A stretch of 64,000 nucleotides of DNA from Candidatus Cloacimonadales bacterium. Its GTDB lineage: Bacteria > Cloacimonadota > Cloacimonadia > Cloacimonadales > JAIOQZ01. Shown piece by piece: positions 5,992 through 60,543 of the stretch. How positions within the stretch are numbered: the stretch's first letter is position 1; each line of letters begins with the position of its first letter. The stretch lies in contig CAXXTU010000002.1 in NCBI GenBank assembly GCA_963662655.2, forward strand, positions 1,632,001 to 1,696,000, given 5' to 3'. The notes under the pieces are model-generated. The model was given only the letters and a program-made list of their open reading frames with translations. It was not told the origin of the DNA and did not search any database. The translations under genes were made by a program, and so were the position numbers.

Positions 5992-6180
5992 AATACCTCC
6001 AAAACTTATACGTTTATTGAATCATACATGAACCAAATCTATTGGGCTGATGTTTTTTCTTTTACCATATCTGTCAAACACTCTTTTGCGTAGAAGTTGC
6101 AATAATATTCATTCATTTTTTCGGTCATCATTTGTCATCGCCTGATTCGTCCCCGCAAGCACAGGAGAGCGCCAGCTCCC

Positions 6181-6286
6181 GCGGCGGGGCGGCGGCGGAA
6201 GTCTTTTAGACTTCCGGAATCTTCCCGGGGTTGCAAGCGCAGCCCCGGGGAGGTTCGTGCGCGAAGCGCACACGCCGCCCCGCCGC
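6181..6286 (+). repeat. Family 1 four-way-junction palindromic element, copy 1
   Basis: P1 6181-6194/6273-6286; P2 6196-6204/6208-6216; P3 6217-6234/6239-6256 (18 bp, three G-T pairs); P4 GTGCGC-GAA-GCGCAC 6257-6271. Confidence 0.85.
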
Positions 6287-6466
6287 TGATATGCGCGGAA
6301 AACTTCTGTGGTCATCGTGCATCGGCAAAGATATAGGATTGTGTGAATATCGTGTTCGGAAACAAAAAAATGACGTTTCAACGGGAATTATATCTTGACA
6401 ATTCACAATAGGGTTTCAGCATATTATTTAGTGAATAAAATGCGTAAAATCCAAGGAGGAATAACA

Positions 6467-7435
6467 ATGAAAAGAACTACATTATTCGTGGCTTTACTGG
6501 CAATCGTAGGATCGATGTTCGCATTGACCTGCTACGATGTACAGTACACAGAGGACGCAAACGGAACTTCACCTTATTTCGGTCAGACAGTTACCGTGCA
6601 AGGCATCGTTGTGGCAACCGAGTGGAGAGGTTATGTTGACTTCTATATTGCCGATCCGGAAGGCGGACCATGGCATGGCCTTTTCATCTACGACGACACC
6701 GAAGAATACGGCGACATGGTTTCCGTAGGCGACATGATTGAAATCACTGGTCTTATTGACGAGTATTACAACATGACCGAACTCAAGGAAATCGACGACA
6801 TGGAAATCCTCAGTTCCGGTAATGCTGTTCCTGAAGCCTATAGAGTAACATGCAGTGACCTTGCTTCCAACGAAGCGAACGAAGGTTGCCACGTTTACAT
6901 CACCGGCGAACTCACAGTGACCCAGGCTCAGAACAACTACGGTGAGTGGTACGTTTCCGACGGCGACGGCGAATGCCAGATCGACGATGGCTTCTTCTAC
7001 CTTGATAGCGTAGACCCTCCCATCGAAATCGAAGTAGACCAGGTTTGGGGAACGATCCGCGGTATGGTCGACTACTCGTACGACCTTTACGCAATCAATC
7101 CAATCACCCCGAGCGACATCAGCCCGAACGAAGGTTCAGACGATGAAACGGTCCCGGAAATGGGCATCACACTTGGCAACTACCCGAATCCCTTCAACCC
7201 TCAGACCACAATCGAATTCTCGATTCCTGAAGCTGCCAACACTACGCTCGATATCTACAACGTTCGCGGTCAGAAGATCAACACCCTGATCAACGATCGT
7301 CTTGACGCAGACACCCATCAGGTTGTCTGGAACGGCACAGACGCCAGCGGCAAGAACGTTACAAGCGGTATCTACTTCTACAAGCTCAATAGCGGTCGCT
7401 ACACATCGACCAAGAAAATGATTCTTCTGAAGTAA
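6467..7435 (+). CDS. secreted acidic OB-fold-like protein with C-terminal T9SS type-A/FlgD-Ig sorting domain
   Basis: AGGAGG RBS before ATG 6467; signal peptide; YDVQY..SPYFGQTVTVQGIV..VGDMIEITGLIDEYY resembles the OB-fold module of ExeM/NucH-type nucleases; C-terminus NYPNPFNP...TKKMILLK. Confidence 0.8.
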   Translation: MKRTTLFVALLAIVGSMFALTCYDVQYTEDANGTSPYFGQTVTVQGIVVATEWRGYVDFYIADPEGGPWHGLFIYDDTEEYGDMVSVGDMIEITGLIDEYYNMTELKEIDDMEILSSGNAVPEAYRVTCSDLASNEANEGCHVYITGELTVTQAQNNYGEWYVSDGDGECQIDDGFFYLDSVDPPIEIEVDQVWGTIRGMVDYSYDLYAINPITPSDISPNEGSDDETVPEMGITLGNYPNPFNPQTTIEFSIPEAANTTLDIYNVRGQKINTLINDRLDADTHQVVWNGTDASGKNVTSGIYFYKLNSGRYTSTKKMILLK

Positions 7436-7453: not shown

Positions 7454-7486
7454 AAGGCATGGACGATTGTTCATGCCTTTTTCTTT
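7454..7486 (+). terminator. intrinsic terminator
   Basis: AAGGCATGGAC-GATT-GTTCATGCCTT followed by a T-rich tract, about 20 nt after the stop at 7435. Confidence 0.8.
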
Positions 7487-7554: not shown

Positions 7555-7673
7555 GTGAGCAGATTCGTTCGATCCTTTTACCGCGTGGTGTTTCACGGCG
7601 GAGCTTTCAATATCCACTTCCGCTCGGAGCCGTGGTATATCCACGGGGTAAAAGGATCGGGCGAAGATGCCAC
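7555..7673 (+). repeat. Family 2 rod-shaped structured element, copy A
   Basis: Conserved blocks GAGCAGATT, GTGGTGTTTCAC (7585-7596), GTGGTATATCCAC (7632-7644) and ATCGGGCGAAGATGC (7656-7670), separated by copy-specific complementary stems. Confidence 0.85.
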
Positions 7674-7754
7674 GAAACTGGAAAAGGGAACGAAGGCATC
7701 CTTGCCTGCATTCTCTCATCATCCCAGCCATTCTGAATATCCTGCTTCAGACAC

Positions 7755-7784
7755 AAAAAAAGGGCAATCTCGATGGATTGCCCT
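7755..7784 (-). terminator. intrinsic terminator of the C45 peptidase gene
   Basis: AGGGCAATC/GATTGCCCT stem with a T-run on the minus strand, about 20 nt after the stop at 7803. Confidence 0.8.
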
Positions 7785-7802
7785 AAAAGACTTCTCTTAG
7801 AA

Positions 7803-9317
7803 TTACTTGAGCAAAAGCATCTTCCCTGTTGATGCAACGCTCCCATTGCCATTCTTCTGCGAAACGCGACAGAGGTAGACGCCGGATGCCTGTGATTCAG
7901 CATTCCAGGTCACTTGATGCACGCCTTGCGTCATGTTGCCAAGCTCCCTGCGTTCCACACGTTGCCCCTTGACATTGTAAATCTCAAGCGTCACGTCGGC
8001 TTGTGCCGCCACGCTGAACCTGATCGTCGTTTGTGGATTAAATGGATTGGGATAAGCCGTAGGAGCTGAAACCATCAGATCGATGACCTCGTCATTAACT
8101 CCGGATGGGGTGATCACTTCATCGAGATTGAAAACGGTCGCCTCTTCTCCGTACGCAGGGTGACTCGCCTGTGCGGAAGCGAAACTCACTTCCCTGGTCA
8201 CGCTGTTGTAACGAATCGCATGGATGTTCGTGGAAATACCCGCCGCACCGGCCAGAAGATTCCAGCTCCTGGCATCGTTAATCACGGTCGATACTTCAAG
8301 AGAATCGACGATACCGTTGTAACGGTAGCATGTGATCGGATTGTAAAGCACGCGAAAATGGTTAGTCAACGCAAGGTTGTCGCCCTGAATAACCGTGTTG
8401 TCTTCCACGGACCGTGTCGCGACACCCATCTGATTGTTGTTTTCGATGATGATCGGAAGATCGTCGTTATCGTGCGTTACGTGAACCAGCGTTCCAACCG
8501 CGCGGTTGCGATCCTCTACGGCCTGAAGAATATCGTTGGTCGTCTGCTCGCCGTCGGCATCGTAATCGACCTTCTCGATTCCGTTGCGCAACGTGAGAAG
8601 TATCGGATAAAATCCACCGGTATCGGAACAGCTATGATTGTTGCCCATGTTAAGGAACGTGGTCAATCCGTTTTCGTTAATTGCGGAGAGTCCGCCAAAC
8701 AAACCCGGGAACGTGAAGGATATCCAGTTCTGTTCATCTTCTTCTTCCGGTTTCTGGATCAACACAACGGGATTTCTGAACAACGCCGCGTTCGTGCTCC
8801 AGTCCATGAAACGGGTGATCACGAGTCCGCCTTGCAGCGTCTCGTCGTCTTCCGTACTGGTTCCCCAGGATGAGATACTCGAACAGGCAAAGAGGTCCTC
8901 CGGTAAGCTTGCGAAATTGATGAGATCAATGAGCGCATTTGCCATCAGGACATCGTTCCCGTCGAGGTCTCTACCGAGTGCAGAGAAATAAACATCCGTT
9001 CCCGCGTCCGCAGCGCCGTCAATCATGGCCGAGGCTTCAGTGACATAGTCTTCTTCAATTACAAAAGCGTTCGTGAAGATCGAACGTGCCTGATTGTAAA
9101 CACTGGGATTTCCGTAACACGCATAATTGAACATGTAGTTCTCAAAAACGTCCATGAAAGCATCTCCAAGGAAATAACCCTGGGCATACCCACGGTCGTA
9201 GTGAGTTCCCCAAACGCGTAAGAAGGTTTTTCCATCCACTTCCCACATATCCCCATTCGCCTGAGCGAATAGTGAAAGCGTACCCACTAACAATGCTAAT
9301 AAAAGCACCTTTTTCAT
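7803..9317 (-). CDS. secreted C45-family (Ntn-hydrolase) peptidase/acyltransferase with C-terminal T9SS type-A domain
   Basis: Signal peptide; WGTHYDRGYAQG, ACSS nucleophile region, RFMDW, INENGL, TNHF; YPNPFNP...KMLLLK tail. Confidence 0.75.
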   Translation of the reverse strand: MKKVLLLALLVGTLSLFAQANGDMWEVDGKTFLRVWGTHYDRGYAQGYFLGDAFMDVFENYMFNYACYGNPSVYNQARSIFTNAFVIEEDYVTEASAMIDGAADAGTDVYFSALGRDLDGNDVLMANALIDLINFASLPEDLFACSSISSWGTSTEDDETLQGGLVITRFMDWSTNAALFRNPVVLIQKPEEEDEQNWISFTFPGLFGGLSAINENGLTTFLNMGNNHSCSDTGGFYPILLTLRNGIEKVDYDADGEQTTNDILQAVEDRNRAVGTLVHVTHDNDDLPIIIENNNQMGVATRSVEDNTVIQGDNLALTNHFRVLYNPITCYRYNGIVDSLEVSTVINDARSWNLLAGAAGISTNIHAIRYNSVTREVSFASAQASHPAYGEEATVFNLDEVITPSGVNDEVIDLMVSAPTAYPNPFNPQTTIRFSVAAQADVTLEIYNVKGQRVERRELGNMTQGVHQVTWNAESQASGVYLCRVSQKNGNGSVASTGKMLLLK

Positions 9318-9886
9318 GACAACTCCTTATGTACTTTATTTTTCCCCAGCTGTTGTTTGTCCATGACTCGATAATGAGGATGATAGAGGTCCCGATACCG
9401 CTGACTGTGATGAAACACAGGCTCTCCCAGCATGAAACCCTGCTCGATCTCACCCATCTGATCTTGATGGATTTCGAGTCCTTTATTGACTAATAATAAC
9501 AGGTCATAGATTTCTGTCCACATATTTCGCCATTGTGCAAGAGGAATCGTCACTTCCACTCTGGCGCTCGCAATGAACGCATCGAAAACATCGTCGAAGT
9601 TCAAGAGACCCTGATGAATCGCGTGAAGGTTTATCCTGCAATACGTTCCATGCCATCCGATGTCTTCGACAAAAGGAACTTCCCGCGTGCGTTCTTCTAA
9701 ACTCATATTATCCAGCTCTCTCTGCATATACTTTCGTGCAGAATCGATATCCTCGATGAGATGCGCCGGACCGTAGATTCCCTGGAAGAACATCTTGTAG
9801 TAGTCTATCAGCTCCGTATTGGGACGCAACGTCATCTCGTGCTGGATGAGTCGTAAAACTTTTTCTTCATCGAATAGCGTTATCAT
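9314..9886 (-). CDS. hypothetical protein
   Basis: 190 aa ORF coupled to both neighbours; motifs DYYKMFFQG..GPAH and HHSQRYRDLYHPHYRV. Confidence 0.75.
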   Translation of the reverse strand: MITLFDEEKVLRLIQHEMTLRPNTELIDYYKMFFQGIYGPAHLIEDIDSARKYMQRELDNMSLEERTREVPFVEDIGWHGTYCRINLHAIHQGLLNFDDVFDAFIASARVEVTIPLAQWRNMWTEIYDLLLLVNKGLEIHQDQMGEIEQGFMLGEPVFHHSQRYRDLYHPHYRVMDKQQLGKNKVHKELS

Positions 9887-11385
9887 CAGTCGTTATTGCT
9901 GTATACGATCTCGCTACGTTTGATAACCTGTAAGACATCGATCGAACTGATATCGATCGAGCCCTCGATCGCTTCGCCCAGGCACACCATGTCGACCTGC
10001 ATTCCGGCCTTCAGCATTCCCAACCGCTGATCCTCACCGATCATCTTCGCCGGATTGACGGTGAACAGCCGAACGGCCTCTTCAGCGCTCAAACGCTCAT
10101 CGGGATTGTTATGATGGATTGCGGAGTGGATTCCTCTGAGCATGTTCAGCTCGGTGATGTACCAGTCCGTAGAACCTGCCACAAGGATGCCGCGATCCAC
10201 CATCGATTTCAGCCGGTTGGTTCGCTTCGTCCGTACCTCACCAAGCACCTCTTCGTAGAGCTGATCCTTGCCGCCCCATAAGTGATCGAACACGGGCTGC
10301 ATGGCCGCGTGAATTCCGTACTCGGCCATGTCGTCCAGCATTCTGTCGCTGGTCAGCTCGCAGTGAATGATTGTGTGATGCAGCTCGTTCGCACGCGTCT
10401 TGCCCAGCATTTTCACCGCGTCCACAATCTGCTGAATGGCCGCGTCGCCAATCGCGTGGACGAACACCTGAAGATTGTTCTCGCTGGCTTCCCGATAGAA
10501 CGCCTGCCAGAATGTATCGGAGCGGTACAGCGTTCCGCGTTTCCCCGCTTGGTCAGCATACGGCTTCTTCAATCCCGCCGTATGAGAGCCGAAAGACCCG
10601 TCCACCAAGATGCAGCCTCCGATCCTCTTCGAACCCAATTCCACCGCCTTCTCGATATCGAACATCTGTGGGTACAGAATGAACTCGACCGGGAAGTCTT
10701 GCACATGAGAAGCGAGCAGGCTGTAATGAAGCGGATCCTGAAAACTGTCTCCGACCATCGTGTGAATCGATGTGCAGCCGGCCTTCAGAGCAATCTGCGA
10801 GGCTTGTTGATATGCGCGTAGAATGCCTTCCTCGTCCAAGTTTCGATGAAACCAGTGCGCCGCGAGGTCGTTCCAGTGCTTGCGAACGGGATTCTGCCAC
10901 TCTTCCGGCAGCTTTCCGCGCCATTCGATGCGCTCGAACGCGAGCGTATTGAGCGCACAGGAGTGCCCGTCGACACGCCGTAGCAAGATGGAATAATCCC
11001 TGGAAACGCGATCCAGCTCTTCAACCGCAGGGAATCGCTTCTCGGCGATCGAATTCTCGTCAAAGCCGGAGGCGAAGATCATACCGCTGACGGGCTTTGT
11101 CTCTGTAAGTAGCTGCAACACCTCATCCAGCGATGTCGCGTTGCTCAAATCAGCGCCGAGGCTATAAAGCCCGCCCTCGAACGAGTGCGTATGCGCATCC
11201 GTGAAACCGGGATAGACATGCGCTTTCGCGAGGTCAACCCATTGTGCGTCCTGGATGTCGGATTCCTGTGGAATTTCCTCGAGAATGTCGAGGATCGTGC
11301 CATTCTCCGTAAGGATGGCTTTCGCTACGGGCCTTGCCTCATCAAGCGTGTGGAAGGTAGCGTTATGGTATACTATTTTACTCAT
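9886..11385 (-). CDS. amidohydrolase family 3 (YtcJ-like)
   Basis: PGFTDAHTH, DGH, DGSFGSHT, HAIGDAA, IIHCE, GSTD motifs. Confidence 0.88.
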   Translation of the reverse strand: MSKIVYHNATFHTLDEARPVAKAILTENGTILDILEEIPQESDIQDAQWVDLAKAHVYPGFTDAHTHSFEGGLYSLGADLSNATSLDEVLQLLTETKPVSGMIFASGFDENSIAEKRFPAVEELDRVSRDYSILLRRVDGHSCALNTLAFERIEWRGKLPEEWQNPVRKHWNDLAAHWFHRNLDEEGILRAYQQASQIALKAGCTSIHTMVGDSFQDPLHYSLLASHVQDFPVEFILYPQMFDIEKAVELGSKRIGGCILVDGSFGSHTAGLKKPYADQAGKRGTLYRSDTFWQAFYREASENNLQVFVHAIGDAAIQQIVDAVKMLGKTRANELHHTIIHCELTSDRMLDDMAEYGIHAAMQPVFDHLWGGKDQLYEEVLGEVRTKRTNRLKSMVDRGILVAGSTDWYITELNMLRGIHSAIHHNNPDERLSAEEAVRLFTVNPAKMIGEDQRLGMLKAGMQVDMVCLGEAIEGSIDISSIDVLQVIKRSEIVYSNND

Positions 11386-11972
11386 TTGTGTGGCTCCAGC
11401 AATCGGTGCAGCATATCCTGAAACAGGCGTACGGGAAATCCCATCACGTTGAAATAGCAGCCATTCACCTTATCGATAAACTGGCTTCCATATCCCTGAA
11501 TGCCGTATGCTCCGGCTTTGTCGAACGGTTCTCCCGTTTTCAAATATTGATGTATTTCTTCTTCGCTCAATTCCTTGAACGTAACCTGCGTTTTCTCGCA
11601 ATCGTAGACTTCGCTCGCTCCGCGGATCACGCAAACGCCGGTGTATACCGAATGCGTCTTTCCCGAGAGTCGTTTCAGGTAATCGATCGCGTTTTTACTT
11701 GAACCAGGCTTCCCTAGTATCTCGCCGCCCAGATAGACGATGGTGTCCGATCCCACAACGATGCAATCGGGATCCATATTCTTCGCAACAACGGCAGCTT
11801 TCTCCCGTGCGTGGCCGATTGCCGACTTCCGGGGATGCTTGTAAACAATTGTCTCATCGATATGCGCCGGCTGGATCAGCGCTGTCACGCCGATCATTTC
11901 GAAGATCGACTTTCTGCGCGGAGACGCCGAGGCAAGCACGATCTTGTGATTTTCCAGTAGTTTGTGTATCAT
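11382..11972 (-). CDS. maf: Maf family nucleoside triphosphate pyrophosphatase
   Basis: LASASPRR, GSDTIV, ILGKP, DKAGAYGIQ, NVMGFP. Confidence 0.93.
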   Translation of the reverse strand: MIHKLLENHKIVLASASPRRKSIFEMIGVTALIQPAHIDETIVYKHPRKSAIGHAREKAAVVAKNMDPDCIVVGSDTIVYLGGEILGKPGSSKNAIDYLKRLSGKTHSVYTGVCVIRGASEVYDCEKTQVTFKELSEEEIHQYLKTGEPFDKAGAYGIQGYGSQFIDKVNGCYFNVMGFPVRLFQDMLHRLLEPHK

Positions 11973-11973
11973 A

Positions 11974-13272
11974 TTACAGTTTTAAGAGCTTGGCAAGCTT
12001 GTCCTTTACAATGTTGAGATTGATGAATTTTTGTTCGCGTACCGAAATGATGATCAGCACGATGCCGACGGCCCCGAGCACAACGTTGGCGATCCACATG
12101 GAGACCATCGGAGAAACGAAGCCGCGATCAGAAAGCTCCTCACCGCCAATGAGGGCAATGTAGTAGACCAGGAACACGAAGGAGCTGACGGAGAAAGACA
12201 TCCCCACGCCGCTCGTGCGGGTCATCATGCCAACCGGAGCTCCGACGAGCACGAAGATCAGACACGCGAACGCGATGGCGTATTTCTTGTGAATCTCCAC
12301 CTGATAGATGCGGATATCCTTCTTCATGTCCTCGATCTTGTTGAGCTTGATGTTGATCATGTTACGGGTTTTCTTCAGTTCTTTCTGGTTCGCACCTGTA
12401 CGTTCGGTGTCTTCGAGCGAGTTCGCACGGTCATTGAGGGATACAAGCTCTTCCTGGGTGTCGAAAATCTCCCGCTCCCACTGCACGATCAGCTTCTTCA
12501 TATCTTTCGTGCTGAGTTCGCGATCTCCCCGCATGTCGGTGCTGAGTTCCTCTTGGGAGAAGCCCAGATCGGGGATGTTGAGCACGAATCGTTTGAAGGT
12601 CCGAACCTCGTAGCGATCCGTATCGGTGGCGTCTATGACGTGCATCTCTCCGTTATACAGAGTGGCTTTCAGGCTATTGCCGCCATTGGTGAGGACGATC
12701 TGTCCGCGTTCTGCGGTGATGGTCTGCGGGAACTTCCTCTCTTCCTGATTGTATATGAGGATGCCGTGCATCTCTTCGCCAACATGCTCTTTGACGTATA
12801 TCGTGTAATTCTTCAGCTCGGTGAACACGCCGGGTTTAAGCTCGGATATGGGGCGTCTTGATCTCGCTTTGATGTACATCTTGCTGAGCTCGTGATTGGC
12901 CTCCGGTAGTACACGATCATTGAAGAATACCATGAAAATCGAGAGCAGCAACGCTGCGATAACCGTTGGCCTTAAAAGCGTATAGATATTGATCCCGCAT
13001 GACTTGAAGGCTACGAGTTCGTTATCCGTCGACAGCCGCCCGAACGACATGATCGACGCCGTCAACACCGACATCGGCACCGACAGCGCCATGATAAAGG
13101 GCAGACTCAGCGTGAATATCCATCCGACCGTAAGCAATCCCAAGTGCTTATCGATGATAAGATTGAGAAGATCGATCAGGTGATCGAGCAGCAACAGAAA
13201 TGTGATCACCAGAAGCGAAACCAGAAATGGTTTCAGATTTTCTTTTAAAATATATTTTTCCAGAATTTTCAT
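11974..13272 (-). CDS. LptF/LptG family LPS export permease
   Basis: MKILEKYILKE start; PMSVL..FGRLSTDNELVAFKSCG; HKKYAIAFAC; hydrophobic segments. Confidence 0.9.
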   Translation of the reverse strand: MKILEKYILKENLKPFLVSLLVITFLLLLDHLIDLLNLIIDKHLGLLTVGWIFTLSLPFIMALSVPMSVLTASIMSFGRLSTDNELVAFKSCGINIYTLLRPTVIAALLLSIFMVFFNDRVLPEANHELSKMYIKARSRRPISELKPGVFTELKNYTIYVKEHVGEEMHGILIYNQEERKFPQTITAERGQIVLTNGGNSLKATLYNGEMHVIDATDTDRYEVRTFKRFVLNIPDLGFSQEELSTDMRGDRELSTKDMKKLIVQWEREIFDTQEELVSLNDRANSLEDTERTGANQKELKKTRNMINIKLNKIEDMKKDIRIYQVEIHKKYAIAFACLIFVLVGAPVGMMTRTSGVGMSFSVSSFVFLVYYIALIGGEELSDRGFVSPMVSMWIANVVLGAVGIVLIIISVREQKFINLNIVKDKLAKLLKL

Positions 13273-13426
13273 TATTATCTTACGTTTCCTTCTTACAGCC
13301 TGTTTACTGCACACGGCAATCGGCGTCAATAAAAAATGCGATTCAACCGGATCATGAAAGACACCAATGAGATGAACACATCGGATTCAGACATACGATT
13401 GGATATTCCCGAATCTTTCAGATAAT

Positions 13427-13443
13427 TGGGAACATTTTATGCA
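13427..13443 (+). promoter_or_regulatory. possible sigma-54 (-24/-12) promoter
   Basis: GG(13429-30)-N10-GC(13441-42) in TGGGAACATTTTATGCA, about 60 nt upstream of ATG 13502. Confidence 0.3.
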
Positions 13444-13501
13444 TGACATTGTTATGTTAGTGGTTCACAGAGAGTGTTAATACTGGAATGGAATAGTACA
13501 T

Positions 13502-14470
13502 ATGAAGAAAACACACAAGGGTTCGAGCATCCATATCTGGATGCAATACAACCCCGAAATCACATTGGAAGAATGGGACGCGCGTTTTCATCGCTTGAAA
13601 AACCTGAGGATTCAACGCGTGTTTATGTCGGGAACTTTTGGTAAGGATATTTTAAATTTAGCAAATAATTATCACATAGAGTTACACGCCTGGATACATA
13701 TTGTAAAAAATAGCGACACACATCTGATTAATTATCATAAAGATTGGTTCATGGTCAACCGGAACAGGGCATCCTCTGCCGGGCACTCCAACTGGCTTTG
13801 CATGAACAACCCCGTCGCCCTCGACTTCGTTCTGAAGAATATCGAAATGCTTTGCATGAACAGGCAGATCGACGGGATCCACATGGATTCCATCCGCTAC
13901 CCGCAGGTCGTTCAGCTGGATCAGCCACTCCTGGAATCAGAGTACCCCAATCATGCCGATACCGATGAGACGGATCACTGCTACTGCTCCTTCTGTCGCG
14001 AAAAGTTCAAGAGGAAGCACGGCGTCGATCCAATCGATCTGGCGGACCCGGACACCAACGAGAAGTGGCGAAATTTTCGCATCGAGACTATCAACAAAGT
14101 GGTCAGGCAGATTACGAACATCGCTCGTAAGTACCGTAAGTTCATCTCGGCAATGGTTTACCCGACTCCTGAGATCGCGCACAACGTTGCTTTCCAGGAG
14201 TGGGAGAAGTGGGACATCGACGCTATCTATCCGGCGTTGTTCAACGACCTCTTTCTCGAGGGAAGCCAGTGGCTTTCCCGCTGCATCCACGAAGGCATCG
14301 AGGCGGCCAACATACCCCTTTACGCAGGACTGCACTTACCGTCTTTCTCGGCTGAAATGCTCGATATCGCCCTCGATGCAGTGTGGGAGGCATCAGGAAG
14401 CGCGCTCTTCGCGTTCGAGAACCTCCGCCACGAGCATGACGACGTCTTGAGAAGAAGAAGATTTATGTGA
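13502..14470 (+). CDS. putative glycoside hydrolase (GHL10/DUF187-like TIM barrel)
   Basis: ELHAW, WLC.NNP, DGIHMDSIRYP, CYCSFC, QEWEKW; no signal peptide. Confidence 0.7.
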   Translation: MKKTHKGSSIHIWMQYNPEITLEEWDARFHRLKNLRIQRVFMSGTFGKDILNLANNYHIELHAWIHIVKNSDTHLINYHKDWFMVNRNRASSAGHSNWLCMNNPVALDFVLKNIEMLCMNRQIDGIHMDSIRYPQVVQLDQPLLESEYPNHADTDETDHCYCSFCREKFKRKHGVDPIDLADPDTNEKWRNFRIETINKVVRQITNIARKYRKFISAMVYPTPEIAHNVAFQEWEKWDIDAIYPALFNDLFLEGSQWLSRCIHEGIEAANIPLYAGLHLPSFSAEMLDIALDAVWEASGSALFAFENLRHEHDDVLRRRRFM

Positions 14471-14480
14471 TTCTCCGACC

Positions 14481-14600
14481 GAAATGCGCTCGGGAGAGAA
14501 GCGGTCCCATCGAAGAATTGGCAGGGATTTTGCCCGGTTATTTAGCAAAATCCCTGCCATTTCTTCGATCGCCCACCCACCCATCAAACGAGCGCATTTC
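14481..14600. other. long hairpin with large central bubble
   Basis: GAAATGCGCTCG/CGAGCGCATTTC outer stem (12 bp); inner stem 14509-14533/14545-14569 (24 of 25 bp); 16 and 19 nt internal loop. Confidence 0.7.
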
Positions 14601-14612
14601 TCGTTAGCACTA

Positions 14613-14741
14613 GGCGGGAGCAGATTGGTTTGATGGCGCTATCCAATGTGGTGTTTCACAGTTCTGCCTCCTTACTTCTCTGATTTGCAGGACTGTGGTA
14701 TATCCACATTGGATGGCGCCATCGGGCGAAGATGCCCCGCC
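14613..14741 (+). repeat. Family 2 rod-shaped structured element, copy B
   Basis: Same conserved blocks as 7555-7673 (14648-14659, 14695-14707, 14721-14735) with different stems. Confidence 0.85.
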
Positions 14742-14831: not shown

Positions 14832-16268
14832 ATGTCGAACAAGGTACGGGTGAGATTCGCACCCAGTCCAACCGGAATGCTGCACCTGGGCGGCTTGCGA
14901 ACAGCGCTTTACGACTACGTATTCGCAGCCCATAATCAGGGTAACTTTATCCTCCGCATCGAGGACACGGATCGCACACGATTTGTCGAGGGAGCCTTTG
15001 AAAACCTCGTAGGCACCCTGGAAGACATGGGGTTGTTTTACGACGAAGGTCCCGGAAAAGGCGGTCCCTACGCGCCTTACATCCAGTCGGAGCGTCTCGA
15101 TAAATACAAACAGGTAGCCGACCAGTTGGTGGAACAGGGCGACGCGTATCCGTGCTTCTGTAGCAAGGAACGCCTGGATGAAATCCGCGCGGTTCAACAG
15201 CAGAACAAAGAGCCGATCAAATACGACGGCTTCTGCCGCAACATGTCGAAGGAAGAAGCCCAAAAGCGCATCGAAGCCGGTGAGCCGTATGTGATCCGCC
15301 TGAAAATGCCGGTAGAAGGCTCGTACAATTTCAGCGATCTGATTCGCGGCGACGTCTCCATCGAAGCATCGCAGATCGACGACCAGGTAATCATCAAGTC
15401 GGACGGATTCCCGACGTACCACCTTGCAGCCATCGTTGACGATCACCTCATGGAGATATCGCACGTACTGCGTGGCGAAGAGTGGCTCTCCAGTACTCCC
15501 AAGCATATCCAGATATACAAGGCGATGGGTTGGGAACAACCGATCTGGGTACACCTACCTCTCATACTCAACACGGACAAGAGTAAGCTTAGCAAGCGCC
15601 ACGGCGATTTCTCCGTTGGCGCGTTTATGAAGAAAGGCTTCCTGAAAGAAGCGTTGATCAACTTCGTCGCGCTCCTGGGCTGGCACCCATCCGAGGACAA
15701 GGAAATCTTCTCGTTGCAAGAGATGATCGAGGACTTCTCTTTCGAGAAAGTCAACAAGGCGGGTGCCGTGTTCGATATGACCAAGCTGGAGTGGATGAAC
15801 GGCATGTACATGCGTAGCATTCCGCTGGAAGAGCTCACGCAGCGCGCGAGAGAATGGTTCGAGGAAGCGGGTATCGATCCGGGAACGGACGAGAAGCTTG
15901 CCCGGGCGCTGGATACTGCTCGCGACTACGCAACGCTGATGCCCGAGCTTGTCGAACACTCGAAAATCTACTATGAACGGCCGGTGTTTGAGGACGAGCA
16001 GATTGAAATCCTGAGAAGCGACGCGTCTAAAACCGTCTGCCGCTATATCATCGAACAACTTTCGACAAAGACAGACTGGACGAAGGACGATGTCGGCGAG
16101 ATGGTCAAGCAGGGGATGAAGGCACTCGAGCTGAAGGGAAAACAGTACTACCCTCCTATCCGCCTCTCGCTTATCGGCAGGACGCAAGGACCGGATATTC
16201 CGCGGATCGTGTACAGCCTCGGAATCGAAGAGACCATCGAACGATTTACAAAAGCAATGGAATTATAA
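14832..16268 (+). CDS. gltX: glutamate--tRNA ligase
   Basis: RFAPSPTG, HLGG (HIGH), RIEDTD, PTYH, RGEEW, KLSKR; AGGAG RBS. Confidence 0.97.
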   Translation: MSNKVRVRFAPSPTGMLHLGGLRTALYDYVFAAHNQGNFILRIEDTDRTRFVEGAFENLVGTLEDMGLFYDEGPGKGGPYAPYIQSERLDKYKQVADQLVEQGDAYPCFCSKERLDEIRAVQQQNKEPIKYDGFCRNMSKEEAQKRIEAGEPYVIRLKMPVEGSYNFSDLIRGDVSIEASQIDDQVIIKSDGFPTYHLAAIVDDHLMEISHVLRGEEWLSSTPKHIQIYKAMGWEQPIWVHLPLILNTDKSKLSKRHGDFSVGAFMKKGFLKEALINFVALLGWHPSEDKEIFSLQEMIEDFSFEKVNKAGAVFDMTKLEWMNGMYMRSIPLEELTQRAREWFEEAGIDPGTDEKLARALDTARDYATLMPELVEHSKIYYERPVFEDEQIEILRSDASKTVCRYIIEQLSTKTDWTKDDVGEMVKQGMKALELKGKQYYPPIRLSLIGRTQGPDIPRIVYSLGIEETIERFTKAMEL

Positions 16269-19239: not shown

Positions 19240-19412
19240 GCGCGCGGGACGGCGCGGAAGCCAATGAATCCCACAAGATATATCAGATGAGATCAAATCG
19301 AAGATGAAATATCTTGTGGGATTTTTTTTGGCTTCCTGGAAATGATTTATGCTGTTTGTTCTGACAGCATAAATCATTTCTGTGCGCGAAGCGCACGCGC
19401 CGTCCCCCGCGC
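19240..19412 (+). repeat. Family 1 four-way-junction palindromic element, copy 2
   Basis: P1 19240-19255/19397-19412; P2 19256-19336; P3 19339-19355/19364-19380; P4 GTGCGCGAAGCGCAC 19382-19396. Confidence 0.85.
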
Positions 19413-19459
19413 TGGCTTGCTGAGCGTATGCGAGTCGACAACGAGTGGAGCGAGCGGTT

Positions 19460-60313: not shown

Positions 60314-60357
60314 CATTTCCTCGAACCAACTGATTGCCCGAAGTTGCTCACCAACCA

Positions 60358-60543
60358 GCGCGGCGGGGCGGCGCGTGCGCTTCGCGCACAAAAGCATGGG
60401 GAAGCTGTTAGCGAAAAACAGCTTACCCATGCTTTTACCGAAACCTTTATGAAATCCGGCGCACATTCACGTTCATCGGCTAATCCGTGTTGTTCCCGGG
60501 AATGTGGGTCGGATGAATGGTTTCGGGCGCCGCCCCACCGTGC
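60358..60543 (-). repeat. Family 1 four-way-junction palindromic element, copy 3 (inverted)
   Basis: P1 60358-60374/60527-60543; P4 GTGCGCTTCGCGCAC 60375-60389 (reverse complement of the invariant arm); P3 60390-60436; P2 60438-60526. Confidence 0.85.

Follow-up and report, generated by a model that had tools for sequence, protein, structure and literature searches.

The element studied here, which we call the rod, occurs twice in a 64,000-nucleotide stretch of DNA (the window, C2:1632001-1696000) from a Candidatus Cloacimonadales bacterium whose genome, G000, is 3.8 Mb in size and 99% complete. The name denotes the whole hairpin element, in which the basal stem, a bulged A, box A, stem X, box B, tip Y, box C, X' and box D follow one another (Table 1). 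Both copies had been described in an initial annotation of this DNA and are present as written there, and the stop codons of the upstream genes lie 120 and 143 nt away, in line with the spacing of 120-145 nt given at the time. Copy 1 is located between two convergent genes and copy 2 between a gene for a glycosyl-hydrolase-like protein and one for a tRNA synthetase, which we take from sequence features to be gltX; lepB, hemN, PIN-like and DUF2971-like are likewise presumptive labels based on such features only. No tRNA or tmRNA was found in the window. We compared G000 with G001, G002 and G003, the other three genomes of the same Cloacimonadales genus. The rod is a dispersed intergenic repeat restricted to this genus, and it is probably a single-stranded DNA (ssDNA) hairpin that is copied at replication forks.

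Table 1. The two rod copies of the window, their parts and the flanking features
Feature	Position	Strand	Partner or detail
Copy 1, whole rod	7555..7673	+	pyrimidine-loop subfamily
Copy 1, basal stem 5' side and bulged A	7555..7558	+	GTG, bulged A at 7558; partner 7671-7673
Copy 1, box A	7559..7573	+	partner box D (7656-7670); tandem G.A/A.G and tandem T.G mismatches
Copy 1, variable stem X	7574..7584	+	partner 7645-7655
Copy 1, box B	7585..7596	+	partner box C (7632-7644), around near-invariant 4x5 loop TGTT/TATAT
Copy 1, variable tip Y	7597..7631	+	35 nt
Copy 1, right arm	7632..7673	+	box C, X', box D, basal stem 3' side
Copy 2, whole rod	14613..14741	+	
Copy 2, basal stem	14613-14618/14736-14741	+	
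Copy 2, bulged A	14619	+	
Copy 2, boxes	A 14620-14634, B 14648-14659, C 14695-14707, D 14721-14735	+	
Copy 2, variable parts	X 14635-14647, Y 14660-14694, X' 14708-14720	+	
Intrinsic-terminator-like site	7454..7479	+	of upstream gene, before copy 1
Intrinsic-terminator-like site	7761..7784	-	of convergent gene, other side of copy 1
Neighbouring gene (outside element)	6395..7435	+	protein with FlgD Ig-like / secretion C-terminal domain
Neighbouring gene (outside element)	7803..9317	-	protein with same C-terminal domain as 6395..7435 product
Neighbouring gene (outside element)	13502..14470	+	GHL10 glycosyl-hydrolase-like protein
Neighbouring gene (outside element)	14832..16268	+	class I tRNA synthetase, Glu/Gln family

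The + strand of each window copy folds into a rod that none of 200 shuffles equalled in stability (copy 1, z = -8.5 as RNA and -7.3 as DNA; copy 2, z = -11.3 and -8.9), and in both copies it folds better than the - strand, as RNA and DNA alike. A four-motif scan of G000 identified 111 full copies, to which all per-copy counts out of 111 refer, and 18 half matches. A looser scan added 19 more diverged copies, including most of the half matches, and a few more were seen besides, so that 19 is a lower bound for the diverged copies. The initial annotation had listed two copies, which is correct for the window and not for the genome, and had proposed a genome-wide search; that search revealed a dispersed repeat which the annotation had missed.

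The most conserved feature of the rod is the loop TGTT/TATAT in the pairing of boxes B and C, seven of whose nine positions are invariant in the 111 copies while the other two vary once. The pairing of boxes A and D keeps tandem G.A/A.G and tandem T.G pairs. Diverged copies carry TCTT, TCAT or TCGT in place of TGTT, and about 12 of them have the B:C box reversed, with TGTT on the 3' arm. The bulged A, part of the original description, is present in 99 of the 111 copies and in only 63% of 38 copies from relatives. The span from box A to box D ranges from 90 to 260 nt (median, 115), and the X stems are distinct in 108 copies. Among 45 aligned copies from the four genomes, 95% of cells pair, compared with 80% in shuffles, and two-sided changes number 227 versus 64 in shuffles that ignore relatedness. 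T.G mismatches outnumber C.A mismatches by 30 to 3 at conserved pairs and by 71 to 23 in the variable stems, and the written strand folds better in 110 of the 111 copies as RNA and in 105 as DNA. Thus, the two mismatch boxes are conserved and the stems covary, and these results support the written strand as the selected folding strand. The earlier proposals that the + strand folds and that conserved loops with covarying helices mark a functional structured nucleic acid are supported, as a selected single-strand structure, by the genome-wide copies, in which the stems pair and covary and the mismatch boxes are kept.

Additional features were observed in the tips. In 42 short-tip copies of G000 the tip loop bears a heptamer that resembles the second half of box A and can pair with box D, possibly as an alternative fold or a copy-to-copy contact; it is missing from the window copies. 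A match of the heptamer to the copy's own box D was rejected, as the two do not covary. Nineteen G000 copies carry tips of 84-93 nt with a long branched module common to different X types. This module, which is tandemly repeated in the copy at C2:1736705-1737085, is possibly an element in its own right that has become nested in the rod.

The rod was proposed to be of no recognised family, and Rfam bears this out: the window gave no match at the gathering score, and 20 copies gave only generic hairpin matches below cut-off. A resemblance of boxes C and D to the loops of the hairpin ribozyme was considered and found no support in the Rfam scans. No account of the rod family was found in the literature searched, which covered few subscription journals.

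The family was found in all four genomes of the genus, at a few dozen to more than 130 copies each, and reversed-genome controls gave no rods. An exact-pattern search of 57 other relatives did not find it, and neither did a covariance model applied to 148 further genomes of a phylum sample, in which 20 candidates per genome were scored. The right-arm pattern matched 42 loci in 185,579 species genomes, 34 of them in three Cloacimonadales-titled records, and the other 8, outside these records, showed no left arm. Metagenome contigs gave five chance matches only, and viral contigs, plasmids and phages gave none.

None of the 111 copies overlaps a gene called by the analysis's own open reading frame (ORF) model. 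The flanking gene faces the rod in 82 of the 111 on its 3' side and in 66 on its 5' side, so the placement downstream of a + strand accessory gene noted for the window is not general. The link to accessory genes also failed: on average, GC content at third codon positions (GC3) of genes beside rods resembles the background and is not low, both upstream genes of the window are matched in all three relatives, and genes with secretion tails are not enriched (17/148 versus 94/926).

Other elements occur near some rods. A nearly perfect 25-bp inverted repeat at 14509-14569 of the window directly precedes copy 2 and lies outside the rod family. Three copies of a 1.35-kb multicopy insertion sequence (IS), presumably ISL3-like, are directly beside rods (G000:C2:1506270, 1950524 and 3484913). 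The rods at G000:C2:834897 and 836434 flank a umuC-like gene, and one sits between this gene and umuD; we assigned the umuDC names from sequence features. Two loci of G003 (L029 and L242) are exact tandem duplications of 307 and 432 bp, each including a rod.

We then determined rod orientation relative to replication. Skew extremes of G000 lie at 809 and 2768 kb, in agreement with a dif site at 797 kb and with dnaA and DnaA boxes at 2766-2768 kb. Relative to the fork, 82 of 107 copies point one way (p 3e-8), with the folding strand being the leading-strand template. From 150 to 809 kb genes are mostly on the - strand, as are 15 of 16 rods; from 809 to 2768 kb genes are again mostly on the - strand, but 50 of 67 rods are on the + strand. 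Because the gene lean has the same direction in the two stretches whereas the rods are opposite and follow the skew, orientation tracks the fork and not the genes. The subfamily of the window copies follows this polarity in 30 of 33 cases. All 24 intact copies located so far in G001, in a survey that is not exhaustive, obey the rule; a half rod, which had appeared to be a wrong-way rod, does not, and another match there was spurious. Where the same gene end bears a rod in G000 and G001, the rods are opposite in 5 of 6 fork-flipped blocks, including that of window copy 2, and alike in 3 of 4 unflipped blocks; the sixth flipped block apparently holds a same-type copy carried along by the inversion. 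Two control repeats gave a mixed picture: a second GC-rich repeat of the window showed 27 of 46 copies one way (p 0.30), and a GIY-YIG-linked repeat, discussed below, did lean. The polarity is compatible with entry by way of the nascent lagging strand and equally with a higher rate of loss from the lagging-strand template. An age gap between leading and lagging copies was sought by best-match identity and not found (p 0.88).

The GC-rich control repeat has 46 core matches on C2, among them 6150-6290, 19378-19425 and 60346-60393 of the window, the first being a branched composite of perfect hairpins. In G000:C2:150000-809000 most genes run head-on against the fork (305 on the - versus 190 on the + strand) despite positive skew, a sign of old large rearrangements.

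The same results bear on a structured RNA, which could be a mobile RNA recopied into DNA by priming from the nascent leading strand, or could act at 3' ends, for instance as an RNase III site or a stabiliser. Such an RNA would suit the better RNA fold of the written strand, its U.G, U.U and tandem G.A motifs, the strong covariation and the abundance of rods between convergent genes (47/111, compared with 141 of 904 long gaps), and bcr1 of Bacillus, which has compensatory changes, is described as transcribed (PMC3184786). Several results weigh against it. Rod orientation goes by the fork rather than by genes, and rods in tandem gaps are more often antisense (33) than sense (19). The upstream gene is antisense in 45 of the 111 copies, a predicted terminator intervenes in 19, and read-through is possible in 47; the folding strand is thus out of read-through reach from the upstream gene in 64, of which 49 also have no downstream sense gene. 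Copy 1 sits beyond the terminator of the + strand gene and beyond that of the convergent - strand gene, and because it lies between two terminators a role in messenger RNA is unlikely. No promoter-like site feeding either window copy was found on the + strand. Moreover, G001 gave no reverse transcriptase (RT) match, the single RT of G000 contains a stop, and there is no Rfam ribozyme match. We therefore regard a structured RNA as quite unlikely, and the suggestion of a noncoding RNA or ribozyme made in the initial annotation is weakened, whereas ssDNA, also among its three options, fits best.

Comparison of copies and orthologous sites showed that the rod is modular and suggested that it is mobile. 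Four of the sites followed are filled in G002 and empty in G001. Two sites of G000 first taken as empty hold diverged copies, and an empty palindromic target matching the basal consensus occurs nowhere in the genome. No target duplication was detected: flanking repeats of 2-8 nt are not above shuffled partners, and the lone excess, at k=2, is within the basal stem. In 34 pairs of copies with X at least 90% alike, basal-stem identity is at background (0.57 versus 0.58) and 18 pairs have unrelated tips, while each copy's own basal stem pairs at 5.4 of 6 positions, compared with 4.0. Basal stem, X and tip are thus inherited separately, and the switch from X to tip is usually at B:C or a few bases beyond. 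Among nine orthologous sites of G002 and G003, five have cores 88-100% alike. The other four have core identities of 0.26-0.72 inside shells of 0.85-1.0, and for every replaced core a closer match exists among the other copies, showing that cores are replaced in place at four of the nine sites. Several copies are kept at orthologous sites, some since the split of G000 and G001. The best match lies less than 20 kb away, and always on the same strand, in 11 of the 111 copies, versus 1.3 expected from shuffling.

Truncated and altered forms were also found. Three copies lack box B and the tip, and one lacks the entire core. Copies without the tip or the whole core lie at G000:C2:203865, 1733421, 3426291 and 836434, three of the four in the minority orientation. 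In two copies box A is overwritten by the complement of box D, an outcome that would be expected from template switching. Autonomous copies with an ORF in the tip were sought among the half matches, which proved to be diverged, tipless or long-tip copies.

Certain rods are paired as direct repeats. In G001, two 92% identical rods enclose a 313-amino-acid ORF of 37% GC without a Pfam match, on the strand opposite the folding strand. This ORF is absent from G000, and at its site in G002 and G003 a rod is present and the ORF is absent. In G000, a 91% identical pair encloses 5 kb without a match in the three relatives, and a 95% identical pair encloses a two-gene block located elsewhere in relatives; a fourth pair, also in G000, bounds an interval that has kept its synteny in both G002 and G003. 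Breaks in synteny with G001 occur at 17 of 21 rod-bearing and 56 of 115 rod-free gene ends (p 0.008), in a test that covers 400 kb of G001, uses ends that are not independent and does not separate cause from consequence. A few pairs thus flank foreign or moved DNA and may reflect a role in cassette capture.

Three further observations concern genes near rods. At L269 (G001:C1:2971050-2972480), a low-GC gene of about 287 amino acids lies between two direct copies of another repeat, and this insertion adjoins the rod at the orthologous site of window copy 2. Related pentapeptide/ion-channel genes of 44% GC adjoin similar rods at different loci (L241:7637-9127 in G003 and L245:5943-7283 in G002), as if they had moved along with the rod. 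The low-GC gene family beside rods in G002 and G003 was considered as a mobiliser and rejected, since it encodes this pentapeptide/ion-channel protein.

These pairs raise the possibility that rods are attC-like sites on folded ssDNA, at which a recombinase would bind both boxes, swap tips, and capture or move DNA between direct-repeat rods. The enclosed ORF, the unmatched 5-kb segment, the moved two-gene block and the synteny breaks would be accounted for, as would the two boxes with a variable tip, and the polarity equals that reported for attC bottom strands in sedentary chromosomal integrons (25 of 30; PMC5371416). RecA-type recombination between similar repeats accounts for the same cases, however, and the syntenic interval of the fourth pair speaks against capture. 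Both attC boxes together occur in none of the 111 copies on either strand, so that the rod is not an attC site proper; the initial annotation had allowed for an attC-like ssDNA site. Rods form no arrays, their neighbours are not foreign, and they are unrelated in sequence to dif. The spacer X, at 11-14 bp, is longer than the usual overlap of 6-8 bp. G000 encodes XerC, XerD and phage-type integrases; of its six PF00589 matches, four were scanned and score as XerC, XerD or phage-type, the best reaching 128 bits against an integron-integrase cut-off of 265; a short fragment and a phage-region gene that is split make up the remaining two. A XerD gene adjoining one copy was taken as chance. We thus consider attC-like sites unlikely. 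It is quite doubtful, too, that the rods form a dispersed folded-strand recombination system without an integron, with tip exchange at the two boxes that leaves the flanks in place, nascent-lagging-strand entry, gene capture and a novel class of enzyme; if this were true, direct-repeat rod pairs would drive genome rearrangement in this genus.

Enzymes that might act on the rod were sought at their own loci. RAYT, IS110, RT, GIY-YIG and DUF559 were each rejected as the cognate enzyme, since the loci checked carry other repeats or none. Such genes in relatives are flanked by their own repeats, including several Y1 loci, and G000 has one broken small GIY-YIG gene with other repeats. IS91-type Y2 enzymes gave 0 of 8 in a scan whose control also gave no signal. 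The one lead towards an enzyme is a repeat found on either side of short Y1 genes in relatives; it lies immediately 5' of the rod, on the same strand, in 7 of 18 copies in G002 and 5 of 15 in G003. An enzyme of HUH (Y1) type, since lost from G000, is the leading candidate. In a REPtron-like arrangement, the genus also has small GIY-YIG and DUF559 genes with palindromic repeats of their own on their flanks (L279, L280, L286, L290, L291 and L295). The GIY-type repeat is matched 44 times in G000, although its gene there has a stop.

We favour, with moderate confidence, the view that the rod is a non-autonomous ssDNA hairpin that is recognised by its structure, copied at replication forks by a trans-acting factor and reshuffled by recombination among copies. 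On the folded strand a protein would read the boxes A:D and B:C, which are spaced by about one helical turn. New copies would enter with the sequence of the nascent lagging strand, which is that of the leading-strand template, or else copies of the opposite orientation would be lost faster. Gene conversion with its anchors in the boxes would overwrite cores with those of other copies, and arm-to-arm template switching would keep the stems paired, the mismatches being kept because spreading needs them. ssDNA at forks is favoured because orientation follows the fork rather than transcription, because near-identical copies cluster within a few kb on one strand, and because no RT is common to the genus.

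A number of results weigh against this view. Targeted searches of G000, which did not extend to a full proteome scan, gave no Y1, IS110 or DUF559 match. In relatives, no rod was present at any of the loci checked (12 of the 15 for Y1, 10 of 17 for IS110, 8 of 8 for RT, 11 of 11 for GIY-YIG and 8 of 8 for DUF559), and the Y1-linked repeat is beside 0 of 11 rods in G001 and has three motif matches in G000. All 111 copies are distinct, the closest pair being 96% alike, and thus give no sign of current movement. The flanks of empty sites are only 72-92% identical, so no junction or target motif is readable. The polarity is broken by 25 of the 107 copies, and only 25 of 42 copies of the loop-CGRTAG subfamily, the oldest and common to relatives, follow it. 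Local skew is reversed at only 9 of the 25 exceptions, versus 1 of the 82 others, which suggests that decay by inversion accounts for some exceptions and not all. The GIY-YIG-linked repeat of G000 also leans (30/44, p 0.02), and the U.G, U.U and tandem G.A mismatches suit RNA equally well. Finally, IS608-type enzymes are described as inserting their active strand into the lagging-strand template (PMC5027513), whereas the folding strand of rods is on the opposite template. Rod polarity thus runs counter to the IS608 rule and coincides with the polarity of sedentary attC sites, which points to another entry route or to orientation-dependent loss.

Polarity and retention at orthologous sites might also be expected of a domesticated polar chromosomal site for replication restart, segregation or nucleoid protein binding, and boxes B and C are each near-palindromic in double-stranded DNA (dsDNA). 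The rod is nevertheless confined to one genus, with widely differing copy numbers and with sites gained and lost, and a dsDNA site would not need covariation between the arms. We consider such a site very unlikely.

The more than 130 natural variants of the rod in one near-complete genome bear on how REP- and MITE-like (miniature inverted-repeat transposable element) hairpins spread without a dedicated enzyme; for CGTC repeats this spread is called an open question (PMC3733652). Across these variants nothing but two small mismatch boxes stays fixed, and the gene ends shared by two species, at which rod orientation tracks the fork, amount to a natural experiment. In-place core replacement together with the enrichment at synteny breaks makes rods candidate agents of rearrangement in this uncultured lineage.

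We compared the rod with known systems as they are described in the sources cited. MITEs of the DDE type have conserved terminal inverted repeats in common with an IS, and none is conserved here: the basal stems take 73 forms in the 111 copies, and the end of the multicopy IS is unrelated. IS200/IS605 elements and their non-autonomous derivatives resemble the rod in single-strand, fork-coupled orientation without target duplication; their hairpins, however, measure 20-25 nt and are paired as left and right ends, neither of which applies to rods. Elements of this kind are cut at a defined tetranucleotide; rods bear a weak GG(A)T motif at their 3' foot, which could not be placed at a junction. 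With attC sites the rod shares a strand that folds better, structure outweighing sequence, a variable terminal structure and a folding strand on the leading-strand template (PMC5371416), but it has no RYYYAAC/GTTRRRY boxes, integrase or arrays and is dispersed among native genes. The repeat reported in PMC3110155 is, by that account, not co-oriented with replication.

The closest parallels are REP, BIME and REPIN sequences with RAYT (TnpA-REP), described as intergenic, lineage-specific repeats of 21-65 nt in many copies (PMC6006769; PMC3733652). Like these, rods are many-copy, lineage-specific imperfect palindromes in intergenic DNA near gene 3' ends, without target duplication, and composites with other repeats occur among the rods of relatives. 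Rods differ in being 90-260 nt long, in stems that vary while the mismatch boxes are kept, in strong fork polarity and in nested core exchange. They also have no GTAG/GTGG or CGTC tag at the foot (GTRG at 6 and 5, and CGTC-type tags at 9 and 13, of the 111 copies on the two strands) and flank no transposase gene. The bcr1 repeat of the Bacillus cereus group, about 120-155 nt long with 5-bp flanking direct repeats and a two-loop cruciform (PMC3184786), is similar by description, not sequence, in its length, lineage restriction, variable positions and compensatory changes, whereas the rod is a single rod without duplication. The rod thus behaves like a non-autonomous hairpin of REP/REPIN or bcr1 type with attC-like strand choice, yet is a member of none of these families.

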